DNA from: a virus
Taxonomy: Duplodnaviria; Caudoviricetes
DNA: 54,725 nucleotides
Virus record (IMG/VR): IMGVR_UViG_3300033485_000016
Coordinates: 1-54,725 of that record
Reading direction: 5' to 3' (one strand)
Shown here: positions 3,824 to 54,725 of the stretch, in pieces
Position numbering within the stretch: the first letter of the stretch is position 1
Layout of the letters: each line of letters starts with the position of its first letter
Program-made: the position numbers and the translations under genes
The notes under the pieces: generated by a model
What the model saw: the letters and a program-made list of their open reading frames with translations, nothing else
Database searches by the model: none
Told to the model about the DNA's origin: nothing

Positions 3824-3926
3824 CCTTTTTCTTCTCTTCCTCTTCCTGCTGCTTCATCTGGATGATCGTCTGGATCAGCATGGGGGCGTACTTGATGAGA
3901 AACTTACCGACAGCTTTCCAATTCAT
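3816..3926 (-). CDS. 36 aa amphipathic peptide (MNWKAVGKFLIKYAPMLIQTIIQMKQQEEEEKKKDA)
   Basis: ATGA overlap with the upstream gene stop; fills the operon gap exactly; below the ORF-track cutoff. Confidence 0.65.
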   Translation of the reverse strand: MNWKAVGKFLIKYAPMLIQTIIQMKQQEEEEKKKDA

Positions 3927-4402
3927 AGCAAACTCACTGGGTTGATGTGGGTGAAGATGGGGGAGTAGGTGAAGGTACCTGGGGCGACCAGATCCGCATC
4001 AGTGGAGGGGTCAAAGGGTTCCATGCCCTCATCCCTACAAAGCCTTGTGCAGACCTCTGAACAAAACTGCTTATCCAGACTCTGCTTCCCGATGGTGTAG
4101 AACCTAAACAGCCCCCACACATCGTATTTCTGGCCCAGGTATTTAGTCCTCATGGCATAGATGCCAGAGGCAATGTCAAAGGGCACTTTGGGGCGTAGGA
4201 CCAGGGCCAGACCTGAAGTCCTCAGGGGGTAGAACCCTACGCCTTCGGCCCTGGACCCCATGGAGGTAGAATTCCCCACAAACTGCTCAATATGTGAGTA
4301 CTGGCTCCAGGTCTTGACCTTGATCGCCCACCCCAGGAGGCTCCTGTCGCTGCTGTAGAGGAGCAAGTCCCCAGGAAGCAGCTTCTTCGGATCGATCTTC
4401 AT
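3923..4402 (-). CDS. Permuted papain-like (YiiX/YebB, NlpC/P60 superfamily) amidase/peptidase
   Basis: PGDLLL, YSH (catalytic His), YD and FCSE (catalytic Cys) motifs in permuted order. Confidence 0.8.
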   Translation of the reverse strand: MKIDPKKLLPGDLLLYSSDRSLLGWAIKVKTWSQYSHIEQFVGNSTSMGSRAEGVGFYPLRTSGLALVLRPKVPFDIASGIYAMRTKYLGQKYDVWGLFRFYTIGKQSLDKQFCSEVCTRLCRDEGMEPFDPSTDADLVAPGTFTYSPIFTHINPVSLL

Positions 4403-18275: not shown

Positions 18276-18497
18276 ATGGGAAGAGAACCAATGTCGGGGA
18301 TCCCAACAGGAAGTGAGTGCTGTAAGAAGGTGGTCCCCATTGGTGAGCAGTTGCGGGTGTTGAGGGGCGAGAGGGATCAATACAAAGCATTGTATGAAGC
18401 CTTGATGGAGTTCATCAATTTTGCCCTCCACACACAGTCCCTGGAAAAAGCCTCCCAGATGATTGCCTTGTATGTTGAAAAAACCCCAAAGCTGTGA
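18276..18497 (+). CDS. Hypothetical coiled-coil protein
   Basis: Co-oriented short ORF overlapping the polymerase start. Confidence 0.45.
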   Translation: MGREPMSGIPTGSECCKKVVPIGEQLRVLRGERDQYKALYEALMEFINFALHTQSLEKASQMIALYVEKTPKL

Positions 18498-20202
18498 CGG
18501 GTGCCCGTTGAGGGGCTTAGGCCAAGGGTTCATGCAGCCCGTGGGGTGCATGAATCACGGGGTGATGCTCATTGGGGAGGCATTGGGGGAGCAGGAGGCA
18601 CAGGTAGGGGAGCCGTTTGTGGGGAGAGCCGGGTTCACCCTCATGCAGTTGATGCAGAGGGCAGGGGTGAGGAGGGAGGACTTCCTCATCGCCAATGCCG
18701 TGTGGTGCCGGCCTCCACAGAACAAGTTGAGTGGGGAGGAGTACGAGGTCGGGGCGATTGCTCACTGTAGGCAAGCCCATTTGTTGCCATTGATAAAGGC
18801 AGCAGGACCGAGGGTGTTGGTGCCCCTGGGCAATTCGGCTCTGTTCTCAGTAGCGGGGGTCAGGAACATCTTGGATAGACGAGGGTATGTCGAGGTGGAC
18901 CCGATCCTAAACGCATTCATCCTCCCCACTGTTCACCCCAGTTTCATCATGCGGGGGAATACCAACTATGGGGCGGTTTTCATCAGAGATTTGCTGAGGG
19001 CAGTGGAGGTGGGGGAAGAGGGGTGGAAACCGGCGAAGAAGGATTATGTGCTGGATCCCCATCCCTTTGAGGCGGCGAACTGGGCGCGGCAGTATCTGAA
19101 TGCGTTGAATTCGGTCAATCCCGATCTCCGGTTGGCGTACGACATCGAGACCCCCATGAAGGGGGAGAAGGAATCAGAGATCGACTGCGATGATCCGTCC
19201 TTCTACATCTACCGGATTGGCTTTTCCCACGGGGCCAACAGTGGGATCTCCATGCCCTGGAAACCTGACTACATGCCTGCGATCAGGATGGTCCTGGGCA
19301 GCCCTGGCGAGAAGATCGTCTGGAACGGCGACTACGACACACCCCGCATCCAGGCCAATGGCATCACCATCAAGGGGCTGATTCACGATGCGATGATCGC
19401 GTGGCATGTGCTGCACACAGATCTCCCCAAGGACTTGGGCTTTGTGGCGTCGTTGATGCTCAAGGACCAAGCAAGGTGGAAGCATCTCTCCTCAACTGAC
19501 CCGGCTTACTACAATGCCAACGACTGCGATGTGACGTGGCAGTTGATGCAGAAGACCGAGGAGTTGTTGAAGCAAACCGATCAGTGGGACCGGGTGTATG
19601 TCAGGCATGTCGTGCAGCTGGACCCCCTGCTCAAGCACCTCCATGACGTAGGGATGCCCATCGACCTGAGCATCAGGGCAGAGAGCGCCGTGAAGATCGA
19701 CCAGCGGTTACGGGAGATCAAGGTGGAGATGCAGAAGATCGTCCCCTTCGCGGTGAAGGAGTTGAAGGTCTACGAGCGGCTGCCGAAGGACGTGGACCAG
19801 CGGAAGCTCCGGGGGGTGCAATACACCCAGGTCGAGTCCACCACTGAGACCAAGCAGTGCCCGAAGTGCGGGAAGCAGGGGAAGTTTTCTGAGAAGAGGC
19901 ATCCATGCAAGGTGCCGTTGGAACTCATCAAGGTGCCCTGCTTCAAGTATGCCGAGGTCTTGGAGTGGAAACCGTCGAATAAGGGGTTGAAGAACTACGC
20001 CCACGCCAGACGGCACAACCCGGTCTTCAAGGGCAAGGGGCAGGACCGCAAAGTCACGTTTGACGAGAAGGCAATCAGGAAGCTCATCACGCGGTATCCC
20101 CAGGATGAATTGTATCCGCTCATTCTGGAGTATCGGGAGTTGGACAAGATTGCTGGGACGTATGTGGGGAGGCCGGTGGAGGAAGAGGCGAGGGCCGCAT
20201 GA
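18463..20202 (+). CDS. polA: DNA polymerase family A, N-terminal subunit: family-4 UDG-like domain + 3'-5' exonuclease + thumb (likely start ATG 18472)
   Basis: CDGCPL, GEALG..E...G.PFVG.AG, CRPP.N, HPS (UDG4); YDIET, WNGDYD, YNANDCD (Exo I-III); ends ILEYRELDKIAGTYV. Confidence 0.9.
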   Translation: MPCMLKKPQSCDGCPLRGLGQGFMQPVGCMNHGVMLIGEALGEQEAQVGEPFVGRAGFTLMQLMQRAGVRREDFLIANAVWCRPPQNKLSGEEYEVGAIAHCRQAHLLPLIKAAGPRVLVPLGNSALFSVAGVRNILDRRGYVEVDPILNAFILPTVHPSFIMRGNTNYGAVFIRDLLRAVEVGEEGWKPAKKDYVLDPHPFEAANWARQYLNALNSVNPDLRLAYDIETPMKGEKESEIDCDDPSFYIYRIGFSHGANSGISMPWKPDYMPAIRMVLGSPGEKIVWNGDYDTPRIQANGITIKGLIHDAMIAWHVLHTDLPKDLGFVASLMLKDQARWKHLSSTDPAYYNANDCDVTWQLMQKTEELLKQTDQWDRVYVRHVVQLDPLLKHLHDVGMPIDLSIRAESAVKIDQRLREIKVEMQKIVPFAVKELKVYERLPKDVDQRKLRGVQYTQVESTTETKQCPKCGKQGKFSEKRHPCKVPLELIKVPCFKYAEVLEWKPSNKGLKNYAHARRHNPVFKGKGQDRKVTFDEKAIRKLITRYPQDELYPLILEYRELDKIAGTYVGRPVEEEARAA

Positions 20203-20309
20203 AGGGTGAGATCCGGCTGTGGAAGTTCTTTGCTGCCGTGCTGACGCTGGTCCTGTGGCTGGCGATATGGCAGACCTTGTGGGAGTCGTTGAAGGGGGGA
20301 CTGTTGTAA
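20199..20309 (+). CDS. 36 aa single-TM peptide nested between the polymerase halves
   Basis: MKGEIRLWKFFAAVLTLVLWLAIWQTLWESLKGGLL; ATGA overlap upstream, TAATG downstream. Confidence 0.65.
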   Translation: MKGEIRLWKFFAAVLTLVLWLAIWQTLWESLKGGLL

Positions 20310-20530
20310 TGGACGCGACGATTGATGCAGTGGATCTGCTGAAGAAGCAGCAAATCCAGGTGCTGGGTGCAGTGGACCTGAGCGACGTGCAACGCGAAGC
20401 TGGGTGGAAGATGGTCTATCACGCTCAGCAGAAGCTGGAGAAGGATCTCAAGGTGCGGGTGGATGAGTACCTAGCGTACCTCAAGGGCGGCAGGGATCCC
20501 AACCCGGAATACGAGACCAATGTTGATTAG
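20309..20530 (+). CDS. 73 aa helical protein nested between the polymerase halves
   Basis: TAATG-coupled start at 20309; its stop overlaps the C-terminal polymerase start. Confidence 0.65.
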   Translation: MDATIDAVDLLKKQQIQVLGAVDLSDVQREAGWKMVYHAQQKLEKDLKVRVDEYLAYLKGGRDPNPEYETNVD

Positions 20531-21581
20531 GGGTGGGTTCCCGGTGGGGGGTGACGGGAGGGTGCATACCACCTTCACGCACAACCCATCTACCCTCCGC
20601 CTCTCTTCCCGTGCCCCCAACCTGCAAAACATCCCCAGGGGTGGGGACAGTGAGGTGCAGCGGTTGGTGAAGGCTATGTTCGTGGCCCCGGAGGGGAAGG
20701 TCTTCTATGGAAGAGACTTCTCGGGGATCGAGGCGGTCCTGGTGGGCTACTTCGCGACGGATCCAGGCTATATCCGCCTCGCGAAGATGGACGTGCATAG
20801 CTTCTTCACGGCGTGGAGCTTGTATGAGTTGGAGAGGAAGATCCTCTATACGGATGTGCCCCAATTGGACTGGGGAGATGATGCACTGAGGGAAGCTCTG
20901 GCGTCCATCAAGAATAGGTTCAAGGCTGAGAGGACATACCACAAGCCCTTCGTTCATGGGGGCAACTACCGCATGGGAGCCAAGACAGCCCAGGAGGAGT
21001 TGCTGAAGCAGACCGGGCACACCTTCTCGGTGCAGAAGGTCCAGAAGCTGTTCAATTTCTACTTCAACCTCTTCCCGTCGATCCCTAAGTGGCATGGGGA
21101 GCTATGCAAGACCGTGGACGGGACCAAGACGATGAGGGACGAGGCGACTCCCAAGTATCGCCCCTTGGCAGGGGATGCGGGGGTGTCCTATGTCCAGAAC
21201 CCCTGGGGCTACCGGCATCATTTCTATCAGGTCTTGGACTGGAAGCGGATTGGGGACCAATGGACCTGGGCCTACGGGGAAGATGCGAAGAGGTTGATCG
21301 CGTTTCTTCCTCAGTCTACAGCGGCGGCGATCTGCAAGGAGGCTGCCCTGCAATTCTGGGAGAAGTATCCCAACCTGTCAGCCACTCTCCGCCTCCTCAT
21401 CCACGATGAGTTGTTTGGGGAGTGCGAGGAGGATGAAGTCGAACGGATTCAGGTAGCTCTAGCTACCGTCATGGAGCAACCGTGGGCACAGTTACCAATG
21501 CCCGAAGGGTGGAGATTGGGTTCATTCCTGTCGATTGGGAGCGAGGCGAAGTCGGGGAAGTCGTGGGGGTTGATGAAATGA
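20520..21581 (+). CDS. polA: DNA polymerase family A, C-terminal catalytic subunit
   Basis: DGRVHTTF, T.RLSSRAPNLQNIP, motif A DFSGIE, motif B R...KPFVHGGNY, PQSTAA, motif C IHDEL. Confidence 0.92.
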   Translation: MLIRGGFPVGGDGRVHTTFTHNPSTLRLSSRAPNLQNIPRGGDSEVQRLVKAMFVAPEGKVFYGRDFSGIEAVLVGYFATDPGYIRLAKMDVHSFFTAWSLYELERKILYTDVPQLDWGDDALREALASIKNRFKAERTYHKPFVHGGNYRMGAKTAQEELLKQTGHTFSVQKVQKLFNFYFNLFPSIPKWHGELCKTVDGTKTMRDEATPKYRPLAGDAGVSYVQNPWGYRHHFYQVLDWKRIGDQWTWAYGEDAKRLIAFLPQSTAAAICKEAALQFWEKYPNLSATLRLLIHDELFGECEEDEVERIQVALATVMEQPWAQLPMPEGWRLGSFLSIGSEAKSGKSWGLMK

Positions 21582-23013: not shown

Positions 23014-23251
23014 CCCTCTCCTCATCACCATCAAGGAGGCGTGTCATCTCCTCTCCATCTCCAGGACAGTCCTTTACCAACTCGTCCGTAGAGGTGAAAT
23101 CAAACTCATCCAAGTCCCAGGCATCAGGGCCAAGCGCATCTCCTTTTCTGACTTGAAAGTTCTTGCAATGAAATGGCAGAACGAGTATATTCAGTTGCAG
23201 GAGGAGAGCGATGGCTCTAAAGAAACGCTGCGACTGCCCAACGTCGCCTAA
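23006..23251 (+). CDS. xis: Excisionase-like HTH_17 protein
   Basis: LITIKEACHLLSISRTVLYQLVRRGEI; directly upstream of the integrase. Confidence 0.82.
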   Translation: MSDPLLITIKEACHLLSISRTVLYQLVRRGEIKLIQVPGIRAKRISFSDLKVLAMKWQNEYIQLQEESDGSKETLRLPNVA

Positions 23252-24239
23252 GTGCGAGCATCCCTGGTACTACGACTTCCGGGTGGAGGGACGGCGATTC
23301 CGCGACTCCACCGGAACCCCCAACAAGAAGGTTGCGAAGGACATTGAAGCCGCAACCCGCACCAGGATCCTGAAGGAAGGGGTAGGGATCCTCAGCTACA
23401 CCCCCACCACCCTCCGCGCCTTCCGCCCCCAGTTTCTCAAAGCCTACGTCGAACTCAAGCTCAGGAAGTCCACCCAGGAGCGTTACCAGATGTGCTGGCA
23501 GCGCATTGAGCCGGTATTGGGCGGGAAGTACCTCAGCGAGTTCACCGAGGGCACGCTAGGTGCGTATGCCAGTGACTGTCTCAAGTCTGGGGACAAGCCG
23601 GCCACGGTGACCCTCGACCTTGCGCTCCTGGCTTGCATGCTCCATCGGGCGGAGGACTGGAACCTCATTGCCAAGGCTCCCAAGATCCCCAAGCTCACGT
23701 TCAACAATGCCAAGGACCGCGCCCTGTCGCCGGAGGAGGTGAAGCTCCTCCTGGAGGCTTACGACACGCACAAGGATCTACGGGTGAGGCGGCACCACCG
23801 GGTCATCAAGCTCCTCGCCCTCACCGGGGCCAGGGTGGGGGAGATCCTGGGCCTCCAACCCAGCGATGTGACCCATGACGCGATGACGTTCCGGTGGACC
23901 AAGAACGGGGAACCGCGAACCCTTCCTGTCACCGACGAGATGCGTCCTCTCCTGAAGGCTCTTCCCATCCATGTCAATTACAATGCCCTCTGTGCCACCT
24001 TTCGGAAGGTGACCAAAGCCTTGGGGTGGGAGGGGGTGACCCTTCACACCCTGCGCCACTCCGCCTTGACCATCATGGGGGAATCGGGGATGCCGCTACG
24101 GACCTTGCAGGAGATCTCGGGGCACAAGAATCTGGCGATGCTCCAACGCTACACGCACCCGTCCCAGGAGTCCAAGGCGAGCGCCCTGAGAAATCTTGGT
24201 CACATACTGGTCACAACGACCAAAGGTACAGCGGCGTAA
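23211..24239 (+). CDS. int: Tyrosine integrase
   Basis: Arm-binding N-terminus (WYYDFRVEGRRFRDSTG); TGAR.GE, TKNG, HTLRHS, GH, RY catalytic residues. Confidence 0.95.
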   Translation: MALKKRCDCPTSPKCEHPWYYDFRVEGRRFRDSTGTPNKKVAKDIEAATRTRILKEGVGILSYTPTTLRAFRPQFLKAYVELKLRKSTQERYQMCWQRIEPVLGGKYLSEFTEGTLGAYASDCLKSGDKPATVTLDLALLACMLHRAEDWNLIAKAPKIPKLTFNNAKDRALSPEEVKLLLEAYDTHKDLRVRRHHRVIKLLALTGARVGEILGLQPSDVTHDAMTFRWTKNGEPRTLPVTDEMRPLLKALPIHVNYNALCATFRKVTKALGWEGVTLHTLRHSALTIMGESGMPLRTLQEISGHKNLAMLQRYTHPSQESKASALRNLGHILVTTTKGTAA

Positions 24240-32656: not shown

Positions 32657-33181
32657 TTACATACCCGCCAAGAGTTGAAGGGCGGCTACAGCGTCCTCCG
32701 TATCGTCGCCAATGGGGTTGAAAAGGGAAGTCCCTCGCCGCACAGCTTTTCTGCCGGTGTATTGAGCGTTGGGTGGGGGGACTCTACCTGCCTTATCCAG
32801 CGCAGTCTGGTTGATGTCCCAGTTGAACCCGCTTCCATTCCCGCCCTGCCCACCCACATTCGCCCCTGGGAGGGTCAGGAACATGGAAGGATTGAAAAGC
32901 GCCGGATCAACGCCAGAGAGGCCAAAGGGCACCGGCATGTTGGGGCCAAAATACCCTCCAGGCTGCTGGACATACGCTCCTGGGAGGGTCACGGGACGGT
33001 TGGCAATATCCTGTGCCGCCCTCCCTCCTTGGATAATGGCTTGCGTGGCCTGTCCCAGCATCCCGTTGGGGTCAACTGACCCGGTAAACCCCTCCCTCTC
33101 CTGCTGGTCGTTGCCCCCCATGATGTTCCCCAGGAAGTTCATTCCCATGGAACCGAGAGCGAGCAGAGTCATTGGATCCAT
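32657..33181 (-). CDS. Pilot/ejection protein
   Basis: MDPMTLLALGSMGMNFLGNIMGG N-terminus typical of podovirus pilot proteins. Confidence 0.6.
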   Translation of the reverse strand: MDPMTLLALGSMGMNFLGNIMGGNDQQEREGFTGSVDPNGMLGQATQAIIQGGRAAQDIANRPVTLPGAYVQQPGGYFGPNMPVPFGLSGVDPALFNPSMFLTLPGANVGGQGGNGSGFNWDINQTALDKAGRVPPPNAQYTGRKAVRRGTSLFNPIGDDTEDAVAALQLLAGM

Positions 33182-33240
33182 ACTGTCACCTTAAATCCGA
33201 CGCTTGACAAGTCCTGTCAAATCATAGCAAACTTGAAGGT

Positions 33241-36117
33241 TTACGCCAAACGAACCGCTGTGATCTTCGTTGCGGTTGTCCCTGCCGGATTGGTCGGGCA
33301 GGAGGACTTGGCGGCTGCCCCTGTCATGTCTGCTGCTACCGAGAGATAGAGTGTTGCTGGGCCATTGAGCGTCACAATCGTCTGGATCGTCAATGTCTCA
33401 GCATGAGTAGATTGGCTACTCTGGGAAGTCTGGCAAGAGGCATAAGTCGTCGCCCCGTCCCAGACCTTTGCGGTGTAGTTGATGTGGGTAACCGCGCCTG
33501 CTGGAACGAAGTCAGGGCTGCCCGTACCGGAGAAGGTGCATCCCCCTGAGGGGGTAGATACGACGATGGTCCGCGCCAGGGCAGCAACACCGGAGAAGGC
33601 GAGGCCACCCGTGGGGCTGTCCGCAGCAAATGCGCGGCAGTGGACCACCCCAAAGCCAGTGAAGGTCAGCGCACCGTCTGGTGTAGGGGCGACGTAGATG
33701 TTGACGTTGAGAATACTGGTGGTTGCGGCCCCCGAGAAGGTGATTCCGCCTGTCGGTGCAGGGAGAGCCTTGGTCCAGCACCTGGGAGCGGTCCCACCGA
33801 AGGCAACTCCCCCCGAGGGCGCTACGGTCCAGAGCTTGTTGATGAGGGTAGTGGCGGAACCACTGAAACTCATCCCACCAGCACCGACACATGTGCCCCT
33901 CACCACCCCTGCAGGGTAGAGGCCGCAAGTCGCCGCCCCGGAGAAGGCATACCCACCAGACGGGGTGACGGTCCAGAGCTTGAGGATGAGCGAGGCGGCG
34001 GTCCCGCTGAAGGTGACTCCACCAGTCGGGCCATCCGCAGCAAACGTCCTCGCCTTATTGGCAGTCCCTGAGAAGGCGATTGGGGTAGCGGTCTGGGTAG
34101 CTACCTTGGTCCAGCACTTGCCCCCAGCACCTGAGAAGGCCACGCCTCCCGATGGGGTTGGAGCGGTGAAGACCTGATTCCCAGCCTCAACATAACTGCA
34201 CGTCCCCGCGCCCGAGAAGGCGAGTGCGGTTGCAGTTTGCGCGGCTATCTTGGTCCAGCACTTCCCGGCAGCCCCCGAGAACCCCAATCCCCCGGTAGCA
34301 GCATCCGCCGCGAACGTTCTGATGCCTGGAGATGCGGTGCCAGAGAAAGCCACGCCACCACTGGCAGGATCTGCTGCAAATGTCCTGATACCAGGGGAGG
34401 CAGTTCCACTGAACGCAACTCCTCCAGAGGGTGTAGGTGCCTCAAAGACCGTCCCACCGACTTCATAGGAGGTCGTGGCGCTGCCGCCGAAGCTGAGTCC
34501 TCCGGCACTATCACCGGGCTTGACGATGATGCCGATGATGCCGCCGTCTTGGCTAGTATCGTAAGTCCATGAGCATCGTGGACTCACTGCCCCTGATGGG
34601 GAACCTTCTGCCCACGAACCTTTTACACCACCGTATGCGTCGAGCGTGGTGTGCTCAGTCGCCCCATTGGACCAAGTTGGGGTGACCCCTGTAGAGCAAA
34701 ACGAGAACGCTACAAGCTTGTCGCCACTTTGAGCGTCCAGCGAGGGGCAGTCGAAGACGTGATCGTTATCTTGCGCGGAATCGGAGTCGCGAACGATGTC
34801 ACTACTGGCTACGTTCTTGTAGTAGACAACGCTGAATGGCATCCCGCTGGTTGGTGTATAAGCCCATGACCATTCGAGTGATTGCGTACCCCGTTTGGCG
34901 CGGCAATCGCCATAGAACGTCGCCCCTAGGTAGTAGCTGGCATCCTGATCACAACACCTCTTGCTTAAGGAAGTCCCACCCAGCGTCATCCAGCCAGAAC
35001 CGAAAAGATAGCCCTGGAGATAGCCCCACGCACAGACGGAGACGACGATGAAGTCAGCGTCACTGGGCACTGAGACATTGAAGCTACCGCTTTGGGCGGG
35101 GCTTTCGTTGTATTGCGTGACGCTTATGCGCGAAACTGAGCCGCTTGGTGTATAGCTCCAAACATGGACAGGTTGGGTAGTGGCGCTACCGGAGAACGAG
35201 ACCCCTCCAGTGGGCTGTGGGGCGATATGAATCGGGAAGGAGCATGCAGCACTTCCTGAAAATGCCACACCCCCCGTCGCCGCTGGGGCGGTATAGATGT
35301 TCAGGAGGATCTTCGTGCAGGTCGCCGCTCCGCCGAAGGTCACTCCTCCTGTAGGATTATCTGCTGCAAAGGTCCGACAATGAGCGGCGGCGGTTGTGCC
35401 AAATGTCGGTCCACCTGATGGTGTGGGTGCAGTGAAGACGTTGACAGCAGCAGGCTTGAGCGCAACCGTGCTGATCGCGTGCGTGCCTGCCGCACTGGAC
35501 GTGGCTTGAATGGTGCTCGATGTAGCCGATGCCGCCAGCCCCGTGTCGTGGTAGTAAACCGACGCACCACCGTCAGCCCCGGTGTTGTCGTTGTTGAGGG
35601 CGACCTCCGTCCACGTCCCGCCACTTGGCGTGGTTGAAGTCGCATCACCACCCGTGCTGTTATCGCCAAACGACGCAAACACCAGCAACGCACGGGGGGT
35701 GCCGCTGGCTGACGCCGTGACGTTGCTGAATGTGATCGTGCCGCCCGCTGAGGTCGTCGCCGTCGTGATGGCGTTCGCGTCCAACACGTCGCCCGAGGTG
35801 AGGCACCCGCTGATGCCAATGATGACACCTTGGCCCCGGTCCCCACCCGTGCGTGTGAACGTCACCGATGTGCCGCTGCCGTCGTAGCGCCACCAGAACG
35901 CCTGCGCCGATGCCACGCCCGCGGTCGCGTCGGTATCGCCCGTTAGCGACTCATGGATCTTCGTCCAGTTCGTAGGCGTATTGCAGCCAACGTTGGACCG
36001 CAGGGCGAGGAAGGCAACGAAGATGTCGCCGGTCGTGCGCGTTGACGGGAAGCTACAGGCGATATCGCCTGACGAGACAACTGACGATAGCGCCCCGACT
36101 TGGAAGGTATATGCCAT
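33241..36117 (-). CDS. Long repeat-rich fibre/adhesin protein (about 19 P(S/T)GGxxFSGxA repeats, two globular domains, C-terminal half beta-sandwich)
   Basis: Repeats visible in the translation; Thr/Ser/Gly/Ala-rich. Confidence 0.75.
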   Translation of the reverse strand: MAYTFQVGALSSVVSSGDIACSFPSTRTTGDIFVAFLALRSNVGCNTPTNWTKIHESLTGDTDATAGVASAQAFWWRYDGSGTSVTFTRTGGDRGQGVIIGISGCLTSGDVLDANAITTATTSAGGTITFSNVTASASGTPRALLVFASFGDNSTGGDATSTTPSGGTWTEVALNNDNTGADGGASVYYHDTGLAASATSSTIQATSSAAGTHAISTVALKPAAVNVFTAPTPSGGPTFGTTAAAHCRTFAADNPTGGVTFGGAATCTKILLNIYTAPAATGGVAFSGSAACSFPIHIAPQPTGGVSFSGSATTQPVHVWSYTPSGSVSRISVTQYNESPAQSGSFNVSVPSDADFIVVSVCAWGYLQGYLFGSGWMTLGGTSLSKRCCDQDASYYLGATFYGDCRAKRGTQSLEWSWAYTPTSGMPFSVVYYKNVASSDIVRDSDSAQDNDHVFDCPSLDAQSGDKLVAFSFCSTGVTPTWSNGATEHTTLDAYGGVKGSWAEGSPSGAVSPRCSWTYDTSQDGGIIGIIVKPGDSAGGLSFGGSATTSYEVGGTVFEAPTPSGGVAFSGTASPGIRTFAADPASGGVAFSGTASPGIRTFAADAATGGLGFSGAAGKCWTKIAAQTATALAFSGAGTCSYVEAGNQVFTAPTPSGGVAFSGAGGKCWTKVATQTATPIAFSGTANKARTFAADGPTGGVTFSGTAASLILKLWTVTPSGGYAFSGAATCGLYPAGVVRGTCVGAGGMSFSGSATTLINKLWTVAPSGGVAFGGTAPRCWTKALPAPTGGITFSGAATTSILNVNIYVAPTPDGALTFTGFGVVHCRAFAADSPTGGLAFSGVAALARTIVVSTPSGGCTFSGTGSPDFVPAGAVTHINYTAKVWDGATTYASCQTSQSSQSTHAETLTIQTIVTLNGPATLYLSVAADMTGAAAKSSCPTNPAGTTATKITAVRLA

Positions 36118-36223
36118 CTACTTCAGGGCAGGGCTGCCCCTCGCGGGGGAAACCGAGGCGTAGACCACGCCCCGCTAACCCCCGATGAAGAGGTCGGGAA
36201 CTTGACGGCCACCGAAAGCCCCC

Positions 36224-36637
36224 TTACGAAGCTTCGATGCGAGGCGTAATCTTGATCTGGTCGCCGTTGTTCTGGACGTTGTAGGGGCCATCCGAGAACC
36301 GCTCGGCATAGACCAATTCCGTACCCGTCGAGCGGGTCAGGTAGTACCCGTAGACGTTGCCCAGCGCACCCGTGAAGGTGAACGTCTGCTGAGCGTAGTC
36401 AACGTAGGTCGGATCCCCTGCCGTCGCAGCGTTCCAGGAGTTGCCCGTCAGGGTGATGGCCGAATACCCATTCCCCGAGGCTTCTGTGAAGCTCGCTGCC
36501 GTGGACGCCTCAACGCATGTGTAGTCGTTGGTGTAGAGCCGGAGAACCAGGTTTTCCCGGTTGGCGTAGGTGGTCGTTCGATTGACCAGATACTCCAGGG
36601 CGATTGCTTCGCCAATGTTTGGGACGACGAGTGCCAT
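36224..36637 (-). CDS. Small fibre subunit (phage fibre/decoration family)
   Basis: LRLYTND...FTEASGNGY..ITL...QTFTF...VYGYY...YAERF; strong RBS. Confidence 0.7.
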   Translation of the reverse strand: MALVVPNIGEAIALEYLVNRTTTYANRENLVLRLYTNDYTCVEASTAASFTEASGNGYSAITLTGNSWNAATAGDPTYVDYAQQTFTFTGALGNVYGYYLTRSTGTELVYAERFSDGPYNVQNNGDQIKITPRIEAS

Positions 36638-36664
36638 TACTTCATCTCTTCTTCTCCCTCCTCC

Positions 36665-36952
36665 TTAACTTCTGTAAACGGTCACATGAGCGGTTACCAG
36701 ATACGTTCCCGCCGGCAACTCCCCAGTGTTCACCAGTGCGTAGTATGAATTGGGGGTAGACAAGCTCACATCACTCCCCAAGACGCCTTCATAACTCGCA
36801 CTCTGCGAAGCCTCGCGGATGCCTCTCCTTCTCCGCGAGATTTCATCATTGAGGACAAACCAGAGAAGCCGCACGGCGTTCTCTGTGGCCTTGTCGTCCC
36901 CCTTCCGAATTCTGTCAAAATCCGGGGATTCGATGCTGAGGTTGTAGGCCAT
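36665..36952 (-). CDS. Tail adaptor: N-terminal helical anchor + first half of a beta-sandwich domain
   Basis: TAATG-coupled to the nozzle gene (start 36952); ends abruptly at LPAGTYLVTAHVTVYRS*. Confidence 0.7.
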   Translation of the reverse strand: MAYNLSIESPDFDRIRKGDDKATENAVRLLWFVLNDEISRRRRGIREASQSASYEGVLGSDVSLSTPNSYYALVNTGELPAGTYLVTAHVTVYRS

Positions 36953-38961
36953 TACAGGTTCAATCGCTTGATCCCAGGGAGGAGTTGGTAACCCAAGGTG
37001 AAGCTCTCCAAGCTCCAACTCCCCAAGGCAGCGTTGTCTCCGATCCGAATCCTCATCCCTTCATCGTGAAGGAACCTTCCATTGCTCTGCTTGAACTCCG
37101 CACGGCACATGCTGCTGCTGGAGGCCACTACGGGATGATCACCAGTCAGGGTCAGGATGCGGTCCCCGTTGGAGGTAATCATCCCAGCCGCCGAAGGGGA
37201 GATTGTCGTGCTCCCAATCCCTGCAACATTATCAGGGGAATTCCCCGGCATCCATTCCACAGTTAAGGTAACATTTTGCTCAGTTTCAAACAAAAAGTCC
37301 CCAAACCGCCACCTCTTGGTCAAGTTCGCCGCAGGCTGCCCCTGGTCGTTCGCCCCCAGCAAGGTTTTTGTCATCCATTGCGCGGCGAAAGCGGATCCAT
37401 CAAAGGAATTTCCGGTCCAGAGTCGATAACAGAATCCTCCCTTACTGGTTTGTGCCTCACCCGCGAGAATGAGTGCGGCAGTCGTTGCGGAATCCATCTC
37501 CGCCGCGCAGGCAAACGGCCAGTCCCTGGCGTACCAGACCCCCCACCTGTAGTTCCAAACGACGGCGATGGAGCACTCGCCCCCCGATGTCGGGATGAAC
37601 CAGGAAATCTCGGTGCGTGCGGTATCGTGAAACGCATGAATCTTGTTGCGGGCGGAGTAGTTGAAGCTGGCAAGGGTAGTCTTGACTGGATGGGAGATCT
37701 GAACGTCATTGTCCCCATCGAAGAGTCGAATGTCGCCAAGGGGGGTGAAGAAGGCCAGGGTGACCACGTTTGTCGTGACCTCCTGCCCCTTGGCATCGAA
37801 ATACTTGGCCCCGGCAGGGACTCTGACGACAGACCGGATGCTTACGCTTCCTGTCTGCGCGTTGGTCCTGGTGCGGGTCCAATCGACAATGTTCCCAATG
37901 ACTTGCCCTGTCCCTGAGATCGTCCAGATGCTTCGTTCTTGGAAGATGACCCCTGTGCCCTCAAAATTCCCCAGCCCGCCAACAATCACATCCCCCATCG
38001 TCTCGGCATCAGTGAACCGGATGATGTTGGCGTCCTTCCACACCGAGTCGGGATCACCAGGATCCGAATACCACCCAGCCTGGGGGTCTGCGTCCGTCCT
38101 GAGGTACCACACCCGCTGCTTGTGGGCCATGGAGTAGTAAGCCTCCGGGGGCGCGTCTCCATGCTCCTCCAAGACCCTGTTCTCCAGGATGGTCAGGTCT
38201 TCAATATTGTCTGTCCACGCTACCGTCGTCCTCCCCTCTATATAGGTGGTGAAGTAATACACCAATCCCGTGCCAGAGGTCCGATAGATCTCATACCCCG
38301 TAACGGTCGCATCACTATCAGCCGTCCACGCCAAGCTGATTTGCTTATACTGGCTCGTCTCCGCATTCGACGTGATGCTCGCCAGCTTCCTGGTCCCATC
38401 GGTCTTGATGGGGACCACCCGATACCGATATGTGCCCAGCAGCAATCCCGCGCTGCTTTGCACTGTGGCGGTGGGGGCTGCCAGTTGTGTGCTCCCTGCC
38501 ACCGCGAGGCTCGATCCATCCCAGACCCTCACCGTGGTCTTCCCACAGGAGATCAGGAGGAGATCCCCAAACTGGGTGAAGCATGGCACCTGACCGACGC
38601 ATCCAGCCCCCAAGTCCCCCCGAAACGTCCAAGTCGCCCCGTCGTCGGTGGAGGTCCAGACCTCATACTCATTCACCGCGTCGTCAAAGACCCCCACCAA
38701 TTGCCGGGTGACGCTTCCTCCGCTCGTTTTTCTGTAGGGGAACAGTGCCCTCAGCATCGTCGCACTGCCCCCCGTATCGGTTGTTACTGCCGAGGAATTC
38801 TGCTTCGCATACCCCAAAATCCTCTTCGCCCGTCCATACTTGTCGATCCACAGATTCCTGGACCCGCCTGAGGAAAACACATCAGGCAGCAGGACGCTAT
38901 GAATCCCCTCCTGCGTCCCCAGGAACGCATCGAAGAGTTGAAGTTGAAGCGGGACGGCCAT
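36952..38961 (-). CDS. Tail nozzle / DNA stabilization protein (P22 gp10-like beta-propeller with FN3-like insert)
   Basis: 669 aa beta-rich; WYSDPGDPDS, VWNYRWGVW, TKRWR patterns; position before ejection genes. Confidence 0.7.
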   Translation of the reverse strand: MAVPLQLQLFDAFLGTQEGIHSVLLPDVFSSGGSRNLWIDKYGRAKRILGYAKQNSSAVTTDTGGSATMLRALFPYRKTSGGSVTRQLVGVFDDAVNEYEVWTSTDDGATWTFRGDLGAGCVGQVPCFTQFGDLLLISCGKTTVRVWDGSSLAVAGSTQLAAPTATVQSSAGLLLGTYRYRVVPIKTDGTRKLASITSNAETSQYKQISLAWTADSDATVTGYEIYRTSGTGLVYYFTTYIEGRTTVAWTDNIEDLTILENRVLEEHGDAPPEAYYSMAHKQRVWYLRTDADPQAGWYSDPGDPDSVWKDANIIRFTDAETMGDVIVGGLGNFEGTGVIFQERSIWTISGTGQVIGNIVDWTRTRTNAQTGSVSIRSVVRVPAGAKYFDAKGQEVTTNVVTLAFFTPLGDIRLFDGDNDVQISHPVKTTLASFNYSARNKIHAFHDTARTEISWFIPTSGGECSIAVVWNYRWGVWYARDWPFACAAEMDSATTAALILAGEAQTSKGGFCYRLWTGNSFDGSAFAAQWMTKTLLGANDQGQPAANLTKRWRFGDFLFETEQNVTLTVEWMPGNSPDNVAGIGSTTISPSAAGMITSNGDRILTLTGDHPVVASSSSMCRAEFKQSNGRFLHDEGMRIRIGDNAALGSWSLESFTLGYQLLPGIKRLNL

Positions 38962-39545
38962 TACTGGATCTCAAACGTGAGTTGCCCTTGCACCAGGATC
39001 GTCCCAGACCAAGCAGTCCCGTCGATCTTGGCGAGGTAGATCTTGTCCACCGTGTTGCTCACGTAGGCAAACCCAATGGCGTTCGTTCCCGTGATCGAGT
39101 AACGGAAGGGGGCAGAAATCTGCCTATTCGCGATTCCCGAATTCGGAATCTTGATCAACAAGCTCGTTGGTGACCCCGTGATGGTCGTGTCGTGGATGTT
39201 CCATGCCACGGTCATTGTCTTGCCTGTTTGGATGTAGGCAAGGGTGGTCACGTCTCCAGATTCAACCACCCACGTCCCACCGTCAGTGGCTGTGAAGTCT
39301 CCTGCGCTGAACGTGGGGGCTGCCCAGGTCAGCGCAGTGGTCAGGAGATACCCAGCCCCCTCCACCCCATCCAACTTATCCGCGTCGAGGTTGGTGACCT
39401 TGGCACTGGAGCCGCTCACCGCAAAGGGGGCACCGGGGTCTCTATCGAAGGTAATCAACCCCGTGACGGTCTTGTCACCTTCACAAGTAATCAGCGTCTT
39501 CCCTGACAGGTCAGACGTGGTATTCGCAACAGAAATATCAGCCAT
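38961..39545 (-). CDS. Short tail fibre-like protein
   Basis: APFAVS.SSAKVTNLDADKLDG motif followed by a C-terminal beta domain. Confidence 0.65.
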   Translation of the reverse strand: MADISVANTTSDLSGKTLITCEGDKTVTGLITFDRDPGAPFAVSGSSAKVTNLDADKLDGVEGAGYLLTTALTWAAPTFSAGDFTATDGGTWVVESGDVTTLAYIQTGKTMTVAWNIHDTTITGSPTSLLIKIPNSGIANRQISAPFRYSITGTNAIGFAYVSNTVDKIYLAKIDGTAWSGTILVQGQLTFEIQ

Positions 39546-39890
39546 TTAACTCACCGTAGGCTGCCCTGGGGCAGCAGGAACCCCTGTCGAGCCGCTTCTT
39601 GTAATCGTATCCGCCGCCCATCCACCCCAAGTGACCGCCCCCGTGGACCCCTCTGCCCCTACCCGATAGGAAAACGGCCCTACCCCCAACCCATACAGGG
39701 TCCGCTCGATGCTCACCGTCACCATGGCCCCGGCTGTCGCCGCAGGTTTCCCCAGGGACGCCTCCTTCCTCAGCTGCCCACTCTCATACAACTGCAACCG
39801 ATACTGCTTGACCTTGGGACTTCCGTCCGTATTGTTGGTGTTATGGTCAGCACTCGTCGTGAACGAAATCGTGGTTGGGTCAAGAGCCAT
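39546..39890 (-). CDS. FN3/Ig-like 'SADH' domain virion protein
   Basis: FTTSADH...LGKP...YRVGAEG...PAAPG; ATG 39890; no signal peptide. Confidence 0.65.
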   Translation of the reverse strand: MALDPTTISFTTSADHNTNNTDGSPKVKQYRLQLYESGQLRKEASLGKPAATAGAMVTVSIERTLYGLGVGPFSYRVGAEGSTGAVTWGGWAADTITRSGSTGVPAAPGQPTVS

Positions 39891-49913: not shown

Positions 49914-52128
49914 TTGGAGCCTTCTTCTGAGGAGGTTGATTCCCCGTCTTCGACAATGCTTCTCCTACCATCCTGGGTGCCCCCATGGCTGACTTGGCCC
50001 CTTCCCTCAATTGATCCATCACGATGTCGGTCGTCGCAGCTGCCGTCGTCGCCGCAGTCTGCTGTGCCGCTTGCTGCATGGCTCCCTGGGCTGCCTGATT
50101 CGCCATGAAGGACTGCTGGGCCATGGCGGCTTGCTGCAAGTAGAACTGGTGCTGCTGCCATCTCTGGATGAACAGCATTTGGATCTGCTGAGGAGACGAC
50201 AACCACTCCGTCGTCGCCATGGCAGCTTCCAGTTCATCCATCATGCAGTTGTGGTCCCAGAAGGGCATGACAGGGGGGCAGTATTCCCCCTTCCAGAGAC
50301 GTTCGATTAGCTCACATGCGAGCTTGCGGTAGCGAGCTTCCTTTGACTCTCTACCCACGTCTCCAAACTGGAGGTCTTGCGCCACCTTTCCCTTGTCCAG
50401 CTGCCCAGTCCGGTCGTCCATGTAGAGGATGGCAAGGGGAGAAGCCAACCTCTCCCGCACTCTAGCCTCCCTCAATGCCCTCAACTCCGGCATGAGCGAT
50501 CCGCGCTCCACCGTAAAGTTGTAGTTAGTCCCACCCCTGAGAACTTCTTCGGTATGGAAGGTAAACACCTCATCCCGCATGTCACGGGAGGTGTAGTGGA
50601 GGGTTCTAGCCGGCGGATAGAACTGCTTGACCCTATTCAGCCTCTGTTGCTTGATCCTGGCGACTCGCTGCCCCAGGTGCTCATACAACATCCCCCACTC
50701 TGTATCCAGGATCTCCTGAAGCAGGGGGACAGCCAGAGGTCCGCGCAACTGACCTGGGAACTTACTTTCCTGGAAGAGATCACTCCCACCAGCGATGTCG
50801 CTGAGGAGCTTAACAACCAACTCGATTGACTCAAGGAACCCTTGGGGCAGCAAGGCCGGCTGTGCCCTCTGAACCATCGGCACACCCTGGTCATTAAGCC
50901 CGTTCTTGACATACCCCGGATAATCCGTAGGCACATCCGCCTCAGCCAAGTTGGGACCAAGGAGGACTGGAGAATAAACAGTATCATTCGCATGTTCGCC
51001 TAGCTGGCTCAGCCTCTTGTTGAGAAATCTCTGTGGAGCGATCAGATCCGTCACATAATCCTGGGTCCAGAAGGTCGTAGTAGGCGGAGTCCAGTGAATG
51101 TCAGTGATGGGAATGTCCCCATAGTCATTCACCCCTTCCCTCAGCACCATCTTCCCCGGCACGAACACGTCATACCTGCCATTGGGATTAGTGAAGCTCC
51201 GGGGCGCATAGCTCTCCACCACAATGTCCATGGGAGGGTCATCATCAGCCCTGGACCCCTGCACCAGTGGGATCATGTCGGCCAGAAACATGTTCGCCAC
51301 CGAATCCCCCAACTGGGTGAACTGGGTGGAGATGATTTTGAGATCATCATTCCCGCCACCCAGCGCATTCATGTCCACATCGGGGAAATTCTCCTGAATC
51401 CACCCATGCGTCCTGAAATTGGCAATATAAACCCTCTGATCAGGGGCCAGATCCTCAATCGCCCTCACCGAGGCGTCCACAAACACATTAAGAGGCCCAT
51501 ACACTACTGCCCCTACGTCCCCTTCCGTCCTCACTTCCTCCGCTGCCTCAAACAACCCCGGATCCGCCCCTGTTTGCACCTGTTGCTGGACCTCGCTAAA
51601 GGGGCTTTCCTCTCCAGTGATCTTGTTCTTGAAAACCGGCTCATTTCCCATCATTTTGGGAATGGACTCACTCTGGGCGTTGGGAATCCAGGGGGTATAC
51701 TCAAAACAGACCCCTCCAACCGCCATCCACCAGACCCTTTCCCACATCCGGGCCTGCTCGTCCAGTTTTTCATCCAGAGCCTTGTCTAATCTGTCCACCA
51801 CCTCCGCCTCAGCCAGTGCTTTGGGGTCTTTCTTATTAGGATTGGCCTTGAACACCATCCCAATGCTCGTCAATCGCCCCAAACACTTCCGCATCCGGTG
51901 CCCAATGAGGTTGAACACCAAATGCAGCTTGTTGTCATTGGTGGAATTGGCAACAATGGCCTTTTTCTGGGCCGTTACATGCTGCTCCCCGGCCACCATG
52001 GCGAGATTTGTCAGCACTCTCGCCTCAACACCACCTGTATGCCTGATTTTCTGCTGTCTGAGCCTCTCGTAGTCCTTTGTCAACTCGTCCAGCAGCACTT
52101 TTGCGTCAGAAATCGGCTGATCCATCAC
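49897..52128 (-). CDS. Portal protein
   Basis: 743 aa; downstream of terL; LVFN.I, DLI.PQR.LN, Gln/Ala-rich C-terminal barrel as in P22-type portals. Confidence 0.85.
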   Translation of the reverse strand: MMDQPISDAKVLLDELTKDYERLRQQKIRHTGGVEARVLTNLAMVAGEQHVTAQKKAIVANSTNDNKLHLVFNLIGHRMRKCLGRLTSIGMVFKANPNKKDPKALAEAEVVDRLDKALDEKLDEQARMWERVWWMAVGGVCFEYTPWIPNAQSESIPKMMGNEPVFKNKITGEESPFSEVQQQVQTGADPGLFEAAEEVRTEGDVGAVVYGPLNVFVDASVRAIEDLAPDQRVYIANFRTHGWIQENFPDVDMNALGGGNDDLKIISTQFTQLGDSVANMFLADMIPLVQGSRADDDPPMDIVVESYAPRSFTNPNGRYDVFVPGKMVLREGVNDYGDIPITDIHWTPPTTTFWTQDYVTDLIAPQRFLNKRLSQLGEHANDTVYSPVLLGPNLAEADVPTDYPGYVKNGLNDQGVPMVQRAQPALLPQGFLESIELVVKLLSDIAGGSDLFQESKFPGQLRGPLAVPLLQEILDTEWGMLYEHLGQRVARIKQQRLNRVKQFYPPARTLHYTSRDMRDEVFTFHTEEVLRGGTNYNFTVERGSLMPELRALREARVRERLASPLAILYMDDRTGQLDKGKVAQDLQFGDVGRESKEARYRKLACELIERLWKGEYCPPVMPFWDHNCMMDELEAAMATTEWLSSPQQIQMLFIQRWQQHQFYLQQAAMAQQSFMANQAAQGAMQQAAQQTAATTAAATTDIVMDQLREGAKSAMGAPRMVGEALSKTGNQPPQKKAPNGPSR

Positions 52129-53681
52129 TTTTTGCCCAAATGCGGGTCACTTGTTGCCCGTTTTCTCGGCATGGAGGCCAAGAAAGATTGAATCCAGGTG
52201 GTTTTTGGCGTCTCCAGAAGCTCTTTGCCCCTGGGACGCCTCGAAAGAATGTGCTCCAAGCAGTCAAGGGTGTGATCTCGGTCCTTCACCCTCGCAAACT
52301 TGCCTGAAGCAGTCGCCTCTTCAGGCCAATGTGCCCATTCCAACTCAAAGGGAAGGACACTCAACCAGGGTGCCAGCCAGATTTTGCCTGCCTGGAAGTA
52401 TTCCCGTGAGATCTCAGTGCGTGTTTCGGGGGTTTGCTTATTACCTAACAGGGTAATGTTGTAATTCTGCAACTCTCGCTTGAACTGACTGTTCGCATCG
52501 GCCCAGAAGATGCCTCTCCCACCCCATCTCAAGGCACTCTCTTCCATCAACCGCGCCCATTCAGGAATGCTCTGCGCCTCATTCAGGTCAATTTGACCCG
52601 CAATATACCTGTAATTGGGAATTTCATCGATGACAAACGCTTCCCCGTCTGGGCTAAAGGCAACGAGAACTGCACTTCGGTAAGTTCCAGTGTCGCTTCC
52701 ACCGATAATGGCCCATCCACTGGGGAGGGAAAGATTATCTCTGGAGGCAGTTCGACCTGGATCGAGCCATAGATGCGGGTGGGTGCGGGGTGTGAAGACA
52801 AACTGGCCTCGCTGGTAGTTGTAACAACGTCCGATGAACTCTCCCAGCTGCCCAAGAAAAGCAATCTGGAACTTCTCCTGGGTCATAATCCCGCCTTTTT
52901 GCGGGTCAGCCCTGTCCATCGCCTCCTGGCTGAACGTATGAGGATTCACACTACGAGGAACACCGCAAACACAGTACCATTCGGGGAAGTCACCGTGCCC
53001 GTGCTCGTGGAAAACTCCCACCCATGGTCGATCAGGAGTCGTCGCAAAGACAGCGTATCCTTGACGAGCCTGGAGGTTTTGGCTAAATCCTGTGTAGCAT
53101 TCAAGTCCTGGGAGTTGATAGGCTTCACAGTAGATGTAAGCGTCGTGTTCCTTGCCCTTGAGCGAATCTTTTCTCTCCCACGATCTCGCTTCATATCTCG
53201 CTCCGTTAGGCAAATCCAGATACATCCTTCCGTCCCTGGGGCGGTTTTGTAGGGACGAGTACTTCATCCCCATCCCCTTATCGCTCAACAGGGCTTCACA
53301 GATATACTCAAACTCTGGCTGGCAGATGTCGTATTCCAGTCCGACGAGCGCCACCCTGGCATCGGGTACGGCTGCAAACCCAGCCGCCCATCTTCCTCCA
53401 GCCCAACTCTTCCCGCTCTTAAACGCTCCCAGATCGGCCAGAACTCTAGCTGTCCCTTCAGGGCGGGGTAGAAGCTTTCTCCACTCTCTTGATTTGTCTG
53501 GGAGGCTAATTTCCAAGGCAAGGTCATCTTTCTCCGCTCTTTCCTCTGTCAGTACATACCCCCCAGCCGCCGCCCACCATTGCGCCTGATGCTCAAATGG
53601 CCTCTCGTCCATCTTTTCGCAGATGCGCTGACGGAACGCCCAGGCCAATTGATCGCGGATCTCAGTTGGGACGCGAGGCAA
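52125..53681 (-). CDS. terL: Terminase large subunit (repeat copy)
   Basis: Identical translation to 1653-3209. Confidence 0.88.
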   Translation of the reverse strand: MPRVPTEIRDQLAWAFRQRICEKMDERPFEHQAQWWAAAGGYVLTEERAEKDDLALEISLPDKSREWRKLLPRPEGTARVLADLGAFKSGKSWAGGRWAAGFAAVPDARVALVGLEYDICQPEFEYICEALLSDKGMGMKYSSLQNRPRDGRMYLDLPNGARYEARSWERKDSLKGKEHDAYIYCEAYQLPGLECYTGFSQNLQARQGYAVFATTPDRPWVGVFHEHGHGDFPEWYCVCGVPRSVNPHTFSQEAMDRADPQKGGIMTQEKFQIAFLGQLGEFIGRCYNYQRGQFVFTPRTHPHLWLDPGRTASRDNLSLPSGWAIIGGSDTGTYRSAVLVAFSPDGEAFVIDEIPNYRYIAGQIDLNEAQSIPEWARLMEESALRWGGRGIFWADANSQFKRELQNYNITLLGNKQTPETRTEISREYFQAGKIWLAPWLSVLPFELEWAHWPEEATASGKFARVKDRDHTLDCLEHILSRRPRGKELLETPKTTWIQSFLASMPRKRATSDPHLGKK

Positions 53682-54108
53682 CCTGTGCTCCTACCTTGAT
53701 CCTCCCCATGAGAACGTCGTCCATGAACCGACTCATGGCGTCCTCCTTGCCGGCATTCCCTGCCAGCTTTGCCTCCAGAGCCTGCCTAAAGGTTTGACTC
53801 TTGGTCAACCTCATCCCCTCCATCTCCGCCGCATTGTTGGCATAGAGGAAATACGCCATCTCCTGATAATGCTTATCGAGGGCAATCTTCAACCGTTCCT
53901 GAGGAGGGAGATCCTGCCAGCTTCCACCTTGGTATTTCCTGACCTCTTCCTGCACATAGGTGTGCAGCCCCCAACTCCTCGCCAGCCGCAGCAAGGTGTC
54001 CTCGTCCTCCAACTCAGGGAAGAAATACCTCACCGCGACAAGGGGAGGCACCCCTGACTGAAGCATCAACGCGAACTGCTTAGCCTCATGCAGGCTTGGG
54101 GGGCGCAT
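53662..54108 (-). CDS. Probable terminase small subunit (repeat copy)
   Basis: Identical translation to 3190-3636. Confidence 0.55.
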   Translation of the reverse strand: MRPPSLHEAKQFALMLQSGVPPLVAVRYFFPELEDEDTLLRLARSWGLHTYVQEEVRKYQGGSWQDLPPQERLKIALDKHYQEMAYFLYANNAAEMEGMRLTKSQTFRQALEAKLAGNAGKEDAMSRFMDDVLMGRIKVGAQVASRPN

Positions 54109-54394
54109 CGATATGGGTCAACATATAGACGTTCTTGCCGTTTTCCTGGTGGGACAGCCGGAAGGTGAGGGTGTGATAATGCCTGGGAGAATGCTCGGTG
54201 CAGGGGGAAATATCCAGCTGGAGCTTGTCCTTCTGCTCAAACTCCTCGACCTCCACCTCCAGCCCTGCCGAGAGCCTCAGGATGCTCCTAGGCATCCTTT
54301 TTCTTCTCTTCCTCTTCCTGCTGCTTCATCTGGATGATCGTCTGGATCAGCATGGGGGCGTACTTGATGAGAAACTTACCGACAGCTTTCCAAT

Positions 54395-54725
54395 TCATAG
54401 CAAACTCACTGGGTTGATGTGGGTGAAGATGGGGGAGTAGGTGAAGGTACCTGGGGCGACCAGATCCGCATCAGTGGAGGGGTCAAAGGGTTCCATGCCC
54501 TCATCCCTACAAAGCCTTGTGCAGACCTCTGAACAAAACTGCTTATCCAGACTCTGCTTCCCGATGGTGTAGAACCTAAACAGCCCCCACACATCGTATT
54601 TCTGGCCCAGGTATTTAGTCCTCATGGCATAGATGCCAGAGGCAATGTCAAACGGCACTTTGGGGCGTAGGACCAGGGCCAGACCTGAAGTCCTCAGGGG
54701 GTAGAACCCTACGCCTTCGGCCCTG
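54395..54725 (-). CDS. YiiX-like permuted papain amidase (repeat copy, 5' truncated by window edge)
   Basis: Matches the C-terminal part of 3923-4402. Confidence 0.7.
   Translation of the reverse strand, partial: RAEGVGFYPLRTSGLALVLRPKVPFDIASGIYAMRTKYLGQKYDVWGLFRFYTIGKQSLDKQFCSEVCTRLCRDEGMEPFDPSTDADLVAPGTFTYSPIFTHINPVSLL

Follow-up and report, generated by a model that had tools for sequence, protein, structure and literature searches.

The window analysed here is the complete IMG/VR virus record IMGVR_UViG_3300033485_000016 (54,725 nucleotides, nt), which encodes terminase, portal, integrase and a long block of virion genes on the minus strand. In the order of this block, proteins of 669, 95, 137, 958, 174 and 420 amino acids (aa) follow one another, the last two of them conserved, and our subject is a β-sandwich head domain that is divided between the second and the fourth of them. 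The 95 aa protein (36665–36952, minus strand) consists of an N-terminal anchor module (residues 1–47; 36812–36952), which is conserved across the phage group and bears different heads in relatives, and of the first half of a head domain (half 1, residues 48–95; 36668–36811) with its first four β-strands. The 958 aa protein (33241–36117, minus strand) is a repeat fibre. Its body (residues 1–874; 33496–36117) is recognised by its repeats and by similarity to a 776 aa protein, and the second head half (half 2, residues 875–958 and the stop codon; 33241–33495), with the last six β-strands, is fused to it in frame. Both open reading frames (ORFs) are as an earlier note on this DNA had them, and both head halves were assigned by their match to a hidden Markov model (HMM). 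The 3172 nt between the halves form a two-gene cassette, which comprises the gene for the 137 aa protein (36224–36637, minus strand) and that for the repeat fibre. It is very likely that insertion of this cassette split the head domain.

The profile evidence starts from the fibre end. A phmmer search with the last 99 aa of the fibre against 1.8 billion representatives gave 45 matches at E ≤ 1e-3. The match starts at query residue 7–24 in 42 of the 45 (at 69, 20 and 11 in the other three), nearly all matches end at the C-terminus of the target, and the sequence just upstream of the matched part in the targets resembles the tail of the 95 aa protein. One of the 45, P0037, is a spurious repeat protein to which the domain profile gave no match. 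This profile, an HMM with 140 positions, was built from the last 140 residues of the 36 contiguous matches of at least 135 aa. Only the fibre end was used to recruit these sequences, so the 95 aa protein had no part in shaping the first half of the profile. Residues 49–94 of the 95 aa protein nevertheless match positions 12–56 of the HMM (30.1 bits), and residues 877–958 of the fibre match positions 59–140 (87.3 bits), so that the two matches are complementary and do not overlap. They are also the only ones among the 1105 stop-to-stop ORFs of the window (E 4e-8 for the 95 aa protein and 5e-26 for the fibre; the next has 1.4), in agreement with the earlier note, which had proposed one β-sandwich split over two genes.

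Contiguous homologs that span the break, which the same note had suggested looking for, could be identified by scoring 63 database proteins for both halves. Half 2 exceeded 25 bits in 61 proteins, and in 56 of these half 1 also exceeded 25 bits within a few residues upstream in the same chain. The five exceptions are a twin of the fibre and four short proteins (90–119 aa) that start inside half 1. The twin (P0014) is a 609 aa fragment, 98% identical (11 differences), with the same fusion of fibre and head. The short proteins that carry half 2 and begin inside half 1 (P0018, P0031, P0038, and P0054) may represent gene calls that are too short, or else additional natural splits. Half 2 ends at most four residues from the C-terminus in nearly all 63 proteins (exceptions P0069 and P0073), and collagen repeats are found upstream of the head in P0023 and P0065.

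The break can be placed to the residue. MAFFT alignments with contiguous relatives show that the 95 aa protein stops, and the fibre half starts, in one and the same variable loop, and compared with the contiguous 189 aa relative P0025, zero residues are missing or doubled at the break. Half 1 keeps all four highly conserved columns (L58, L79, G82, and T83) and half 2 keeps six of seven nearly invariant ones. Removal of 33496–36667 (3172 nt) joins codon 95 to codon 875 in frame, with 285 nt (95 codons) from 36952 to 36668 and 2622 nt (874 codons) from 36117 to 33496. The lengths behind the in-frame join described earlier are thereby confirmed, but since such a join can be arranged between any two ORFs, the frame arithmetic alone is no evidence.

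The fold of the head was examined on the contiguous relative P0025. Its AlphaFold2 model (34 sequences) has a pLDDT (predicted local distance difference test) of 88.2 overall and above 90 across the domain, and contains N-terminal helices followed by a two-sheet jelly-roll of ten strands. The break corresponds to the hairpin loop 106–110 of this model, between strands 93–105 and 111–118. Foldseek returned 146 PDB matches at E ≤ 1e-3, which include TNF ligands (TL1A, EDA, RANKL), C1q heads and Chlamydia Pgp3, as well as the BC2L-C lectin, BxpB and several phage fibre tips. At the level of the fold, the model thus supports a TNF/C1q-like jelly-roll for the ∼128 aa head. Pfam has no family for the 95 aa protein, the fibre or ten contiguous relatives, apart from the collagen repeat in P0023, and no sequence relative of the head domain was found in the PDB. 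The head is therefore a sequence family of its own, and the C1q/BclA-C-like assignment of the earlier note stands for the fold and not for the sequence, as the C1q, TNF and BclA families of Pfam are unmatched.

The 95 aa protein belongs to a family that is built on its anchor. Twelve database relatives, 153–155 aa long, match it only over the first ∼50 aa (68–83% identity, 43–56% of the query) and bear an unrelated C-terminal domain beyond the anchor. A set of 80 related loci was obtained by way of the neighboring 669 aa protein, which has 95 relatives in IMG/VR, and tblastn found the same N-terminal module (mostly residues 1–60) encoded in 48 of these loci. Fourteen further relatives were read from IMG/VR loci (154–177 aa when read from start codons). 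All bear one of two head types, which are mutually unrelated, and one of the types resembles the C-terminal part of the phage's own 194 aa protein. With a constant anchor and differing heads, the family is therefore one of short fibres with exchangeable heads, for which the 95 aa protein, with only 48 residues after the anchor, is short. Searches for longer proteins with the 95 aa query gave none at E ≤ 0.01, and a scan of JGI metagenomes with the same protein gave a single locus with the anchor part only. A word search with the head-domain profile (alignment A1) gave 21 head proteins, and the anchor was absent in all 11 that were fetched.

The 194 aa protein (38961–39545, minus strand) is of some interest in its own right. 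Its first ∼67 aa are common to relatives, and its C-terminal part resembles the head of the 177 aa adaptor type (L041, L042, L049, L053, L054, and L064). Judged from these sequences, heads appear to have been exchanged between two different anchors.

The body of the 958 aa fibre consists of an N-terminal globular domain, about four repeats, a middle globular domain and a second repeat block; the globular regions are residues 1–225 and about 330–535, with repeats between them. The fibre contains 15 motifs of the SGGxxFSG type, 12 of them within residues 538–864 (the second repeat block), and most motif spacings are 21–26 or 42–48 aa. The repeat families are also seen in the DNA of the fibre gene. 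In the ESM Atlas, residues 1–225 gave unnamed, mostly viral clusters and a fold shared with bacterial surface-protein domains. The similarity of the fibre to the 776 aa repeat protein of locus L105 stops at fibre residue 872. The L105 protein follows a relative of the 137 aa gene and ends 19 residues past this limit. Together with the phmmer matches, this bears out the earlier observation that the last ∼85 aa of the fibre are unlike the rest.

The left edge of the cassette is the TAA stop of the 95 aa gene (36665–36667, minus strand), as read from the sequence. The ribosome-binding site of the 137 aa gene, TAAGGAGG, begins with this triplet. A two-codon mini-ORF (ATG AAG TAA; 36637–36647, minus strand) lies between the ribosome site and the 137 aa start, with which its stop overlaps. 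The 137 aa protein is a small β-sandwich protein that matches PHROG 10467 (E 8.7e-20) and has 486 relatives in IMG/VR, on contigs of 4 kb to 230 kb (loci L081–L160). The seven loci that were read show varied contexts. A larger protein comes next in six of the seven and differs between phages, and some of these larger proteins bear the same kind of repeats as the fibre. Several of the 137 aa relatives adjoin genes that look like portal or capsid genes, as judged by eye from N-terminal sequences. The head-domain HMM gave zero matches in 160 loci, and Pfam and PHROG scans of both cassette genes found no homing endonuclease or mobility gene.

The model of the 137 aa protein has a pLDDT of 91.6. 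Foldseek alone was weak (best E 0.019), but VIA-align matched the model to the neck chain K of Sf14 (9c39_K; Z 10.3, root-mean-square deviation 2.3, 105 of 108 residues) and to GP4 (8jou_a; Z 8.2, root-mean-square deviation 3.2, 104 aligned), and the top seven structural matches are all phage appendage parts. According to this model, the 137 aa protein has the whisker/Fiber-1 fold. Given the adjacency of the genes and the repeats, the 958 aa protein could be a rope-like partner on which 137 aa subunits are strung.

On the other side of the cassette, the stop of half 2 is followed after 59 nt by the conserved 174 aa gene (32657–33181, minus strand), which has tblastn matches in 30 related loci. 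In 5 of 13 relatives, the distance from the intact adaptor gene to this gene is 27–76 nt. The 174 aa gene marks where the ancestral gene order resumes, and the comparison of sequences supports the view that removal of the cassette would restore the gene order of the relatives. A single clean insertion of the cassette is well supported as the explanation of the domain split, the kinship of the cassette and the flanking gene order together. Two further proposals of the earlier note hold at this point: the intervening DNA is a self-contained module, with its own ribosome-binding site and relatives elsewhere that lack the head domain, and the contiguous relatives and their gene order agree with a fibre cassette that was inserted into an ancestral adaptor gene.

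Upstream of the 95 aa gene lies the gene of the 669 aa protein (36952–38961, minus strand), a conserved virion structural protein (PHROG 3287 ‘virion structural protein’, E 6.5e-12) whose stop overlaps the 95 aa start. The 669 aa protein has no solved relative by sequence, and the label ‘nozzle-associated adaptor’ that the earlier note gave to the 95 aa protein is thus unconfirmed. The region 33000–39600 (blastn) and the 95 aa protein (tblastn) had no match among GenBank phages. A promoter and terminator scan of 32900–37200 stayed at chance level, and the base composition shows no clear break at the cassette junctions.

Some features of the wider genome can be added. The ends of the record, 1–4253 and 50473–54725, are identical at 4252 of 4253 positions. 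This gives a unit genome of 50,472 bp, and owing to the repeated ends the window contains the terminase region twice. A tyrosine integrase (23211–24239, plus strand; PHROG 1, E 1e-55) suggests a temperate phage from its sequence. A second gene in pieces is found in the family-A DNA polymerase, which is encoded in two ORFs (18463–20202 and 20520–21581, plus strand) whose matches to a single PHROG profile are complementary (positions 481–951 and 955–1231). The first piece starts with a uracil-DNA-glycosylase-like domain, and the 103 aa ORF between the pieces (20219–20530, plus strand) has no Pfam match.

We propose the following history for the locus. The ancestor would have been a short tail fibre of ∼179 aa, with an N-terminal virion anchor of ∼47 aa, a linker and a TNF/C1q-like jelly-roll head. 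The two-gene cassette would have inserted cleanly in the hairpin loop between head strands 4 and 5, and would have brought along the ribosome site, the 137 aa whisker-like subunit and the long repeat fibre without about its last 19 codons. The TAA in the first bases of the cassette would then terminate the anchor protein after half 1, and the reading frame of the fibre would run on into half 2. Both proteins would be made from the same late operon, and the halves would co-fold into a single interdigitated sandwich. The split domains would probably form a trimer, and the acquired fibre would in this way be docked by its C-terminus on the resident anchor. That the halves reassemble and that this matters for the virion is a tentative proposal, which we stop just short of calling probable. 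With somewhat less assurance still, we suggest that the loop insertion created a split-domain dock in one step, to which the anchor gives four strands and the newcomer six, so that complementation couples the fibre to the virion.

Reassembly in trans was addressed by complex prediction with residues 46–95 of the 95 aa protein and the last 88 aa of the fibre, one copy of each and each with its alignment. The complex scored 0.82 (0.82, 0.84, and 0.82 in three runs), compared with 0.00 for the best of three controls; the mark for this score is reached by 58 of 80 solved complexes and by 2 of 110 mismatched pairs. The predicted complexes have 219–226 contacts, a partner pLDDT of 89 and a contact agreement of at least 98% between runs. 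In the model, two strands of the fibre half flank strand 81–94 of the 95 aa protein, which runs antiparallel to them; on its own, each half would thus lack a complete sheet. The break lies at the pole opposite the fibre C-terminus. The two halves are thus predicted still to fit together. This is the single interdigitated sandwich that the earlier note had anticipated from such a prediction, but since contiguous relatives make up the alignments, a pass is to be expected with any split domain.

Three other explanations were weighed against trans-complementation. As the record is a virus contig derived from metagenomes, the arrangement might be an artefact, either a chimeric assembly or a chance likeness of the 95 aa tail to half 1. 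We regard this as extremely improbable. The stretch is present in runs from four studies, and separate contigs of runs X3 and X4, from two of the studies, bridge both junctions. One junction is covered over 33100–33781 with 0 differences and over 33100–33850 with 6 differences, and the other over 36522–37100 with 0 differences in both runs, whereas runs X1 and X6 have only fragments on the stretch. The fusion itself recurs in the 98% identical fragment P0014. Half 1 was found at E 4e-8 with a profile built without it, and a chimera would not set complementary domain halves on either side of an insert. Excision of the cassette at the level of DNA or RNA in part of the population, which would toggle between short and long appendages as the earlier note had suggested, is only slightly less remote. 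Precise removal would restore an intact in-frame gene along with the ancestral gene order. Yet no direct repeats were found to flank the cassette, and the only inverted pair near both of its edges (14 nt, 86%) is one of 10 such pairs in 4.1 kb. The 33–37 kb region lacks a recombinase gene (the only integrase is the one described above), Rfam shows no intron or other RNA family in the window, and Pfam gives no Hint/intein match for the split proteins. No contig in the four runs joins across 33496–36667, although rare excised forms would be invisible in contigs. The toggle thus finds no support.

The third explanation, a recent scar, is a serious contender that we hold to be nearly as likely as trans-complementation, which is slightly favored. 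Here the insertion took place as described, but the half-domains do not fold. The anchor protein would be a crippled remnant, and the fibre would attach by its own N-terminal domain or by the 137 aa subunit, dragging along a disordered tail of 84 aa, while other receptor-binding proteins of the phage compensate. Candidates for the latter are the 194 aa protein, a 237 aa LamG-like protein and a 524 aa tail-fibre-like protein. An in-frame fusion would arise by chance in one of three cases. Several observations weigh against reassembly of the halves and in part speak directly for the scar. There is no sign of selection on the split, as the only copies known are at least ∼98% identical. A recent event, with no time for decay, explains their intact halves equally well, and the few changes of the X4 variant (A873S, T891S, M931T, and two silent ones) do not allow selection to be tested. 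Half 1, at 38.6 bits, scores below all others of its family (40.0–82.7 for the 36 training members and 43.1–73.3 for 18 independent ones), which could reflect the onset of decay or divergence of the subfamily. The JGI scan with the 95 aa protein gave no diverged lineage with the split, and no unsplit ancestor with the anchor and a whole head was found in the database, IMG/VR and JGI searches. The cassette may also dock by itself, since in many unrelated phages its relatives do their work with no head half, and since the 137 aa protein is similar to subunits that build or dock fibres and collars. To our knowledge, docking by the fibre C-terminus is uncommon among tail fibres. The complex prediction, finally, is weak evidence, as it is passed partly by likeness to the intact domain. 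Against a scar, the genotype occurs in runs of several studies across years, which argues against a strongly deleterious effect. A complete head is kept on this anchor in each relative examined, so that an anchor without cargo would be the exception. The conserved core positions are intact in both halves, which by the complex prediction still fit each other.

Phages alter their host range largely by exchanging tail-fibre modules, and the route by which a foreign fibre becomes attached is rarely clear. At this locus the join is visible to the residue, as one β-sandwich to which the resident anchor contributes one part and the incoming fibre the other. Co-folding of the halves would make this a naturally occurring split-protein dock that offers instant attachment for acquired fibres. 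By this route phages could add an appendage and be spared the evolution of a fresh attachment interface, and the design could serve as a model for the modular engineering of receptor-binding proteins. Without co-folding, the locus would be a rare snapshot of a very young insertion before decay, useful for dating and understanding the movement of such cassettes. In the literature searched, no title or abstract opening was found to describe a natural split of a tail-fibre domain over two genes.

Known systems share parts of this arrangement. In the invertible tail-fibre switches of Mu and P1 (Gin/Cin), a constant N-terminal part of the fibre is combined with alternative distal parts, as in the anchor family described here. 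Unlike those switches, this locus has neither an invertase nor significant flanking inverted repeats, and no oppositely oriented alternative C-terminal exons. An incomplete β-sandwich is completed by another chain in the donor-strand complementation of chaperone-usher pili and in engineered split proteins. The divided sandwich of this phage would likewise be completed by strands of another chain, but here four strands would be donated instead of one, the arrangement arose by gene insertion, and the complementation is a predicted one.

Among phage appendages, the short tail fibre gp24 of the myocyanophage Pam3 has an N-terminal helical docking domain and a TNF-like head (PMC9608196). The inferred ancestor and P0025 similarly have helices followed by a TNF-like jelly-roll. 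In contrast to gp24, the proteins of this study have no glycine-rich tip and the head is divided between two proteins; there is also no sequence relation, as Pfam and PDB sequence searches gave no match. In Bas63, Sf14, and GP4, small subunits are threaded onto an extended ‘rope’, and this rope interlocks with an adaptor bound to the virion (PMC12609058). The 137 aa cassette protein shares the fold of these whisker/Fiber-1 subunits by the structural comparison above, but the interlock proposed here would be a split TNF-like domain and not an Ig-like collar.

The closest parallel in gene structure is the nrdA gene of the Aeromonas phage Aeh1, which is split by mobE and whose pieces reassemble without splicing or DNA rearrangement (PMC3045599). 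Here reassembly is predicted, the insert is a two-gene virion cassette with no endonuclease, the second piece is no free polypeptide but is fused to the C-terminus of the incoming fibre, and the split falls inside a single β-sandwich and not between enzyme lobes. As in Aeh1, an insertion has divided one coding region and left both pieces translatable.

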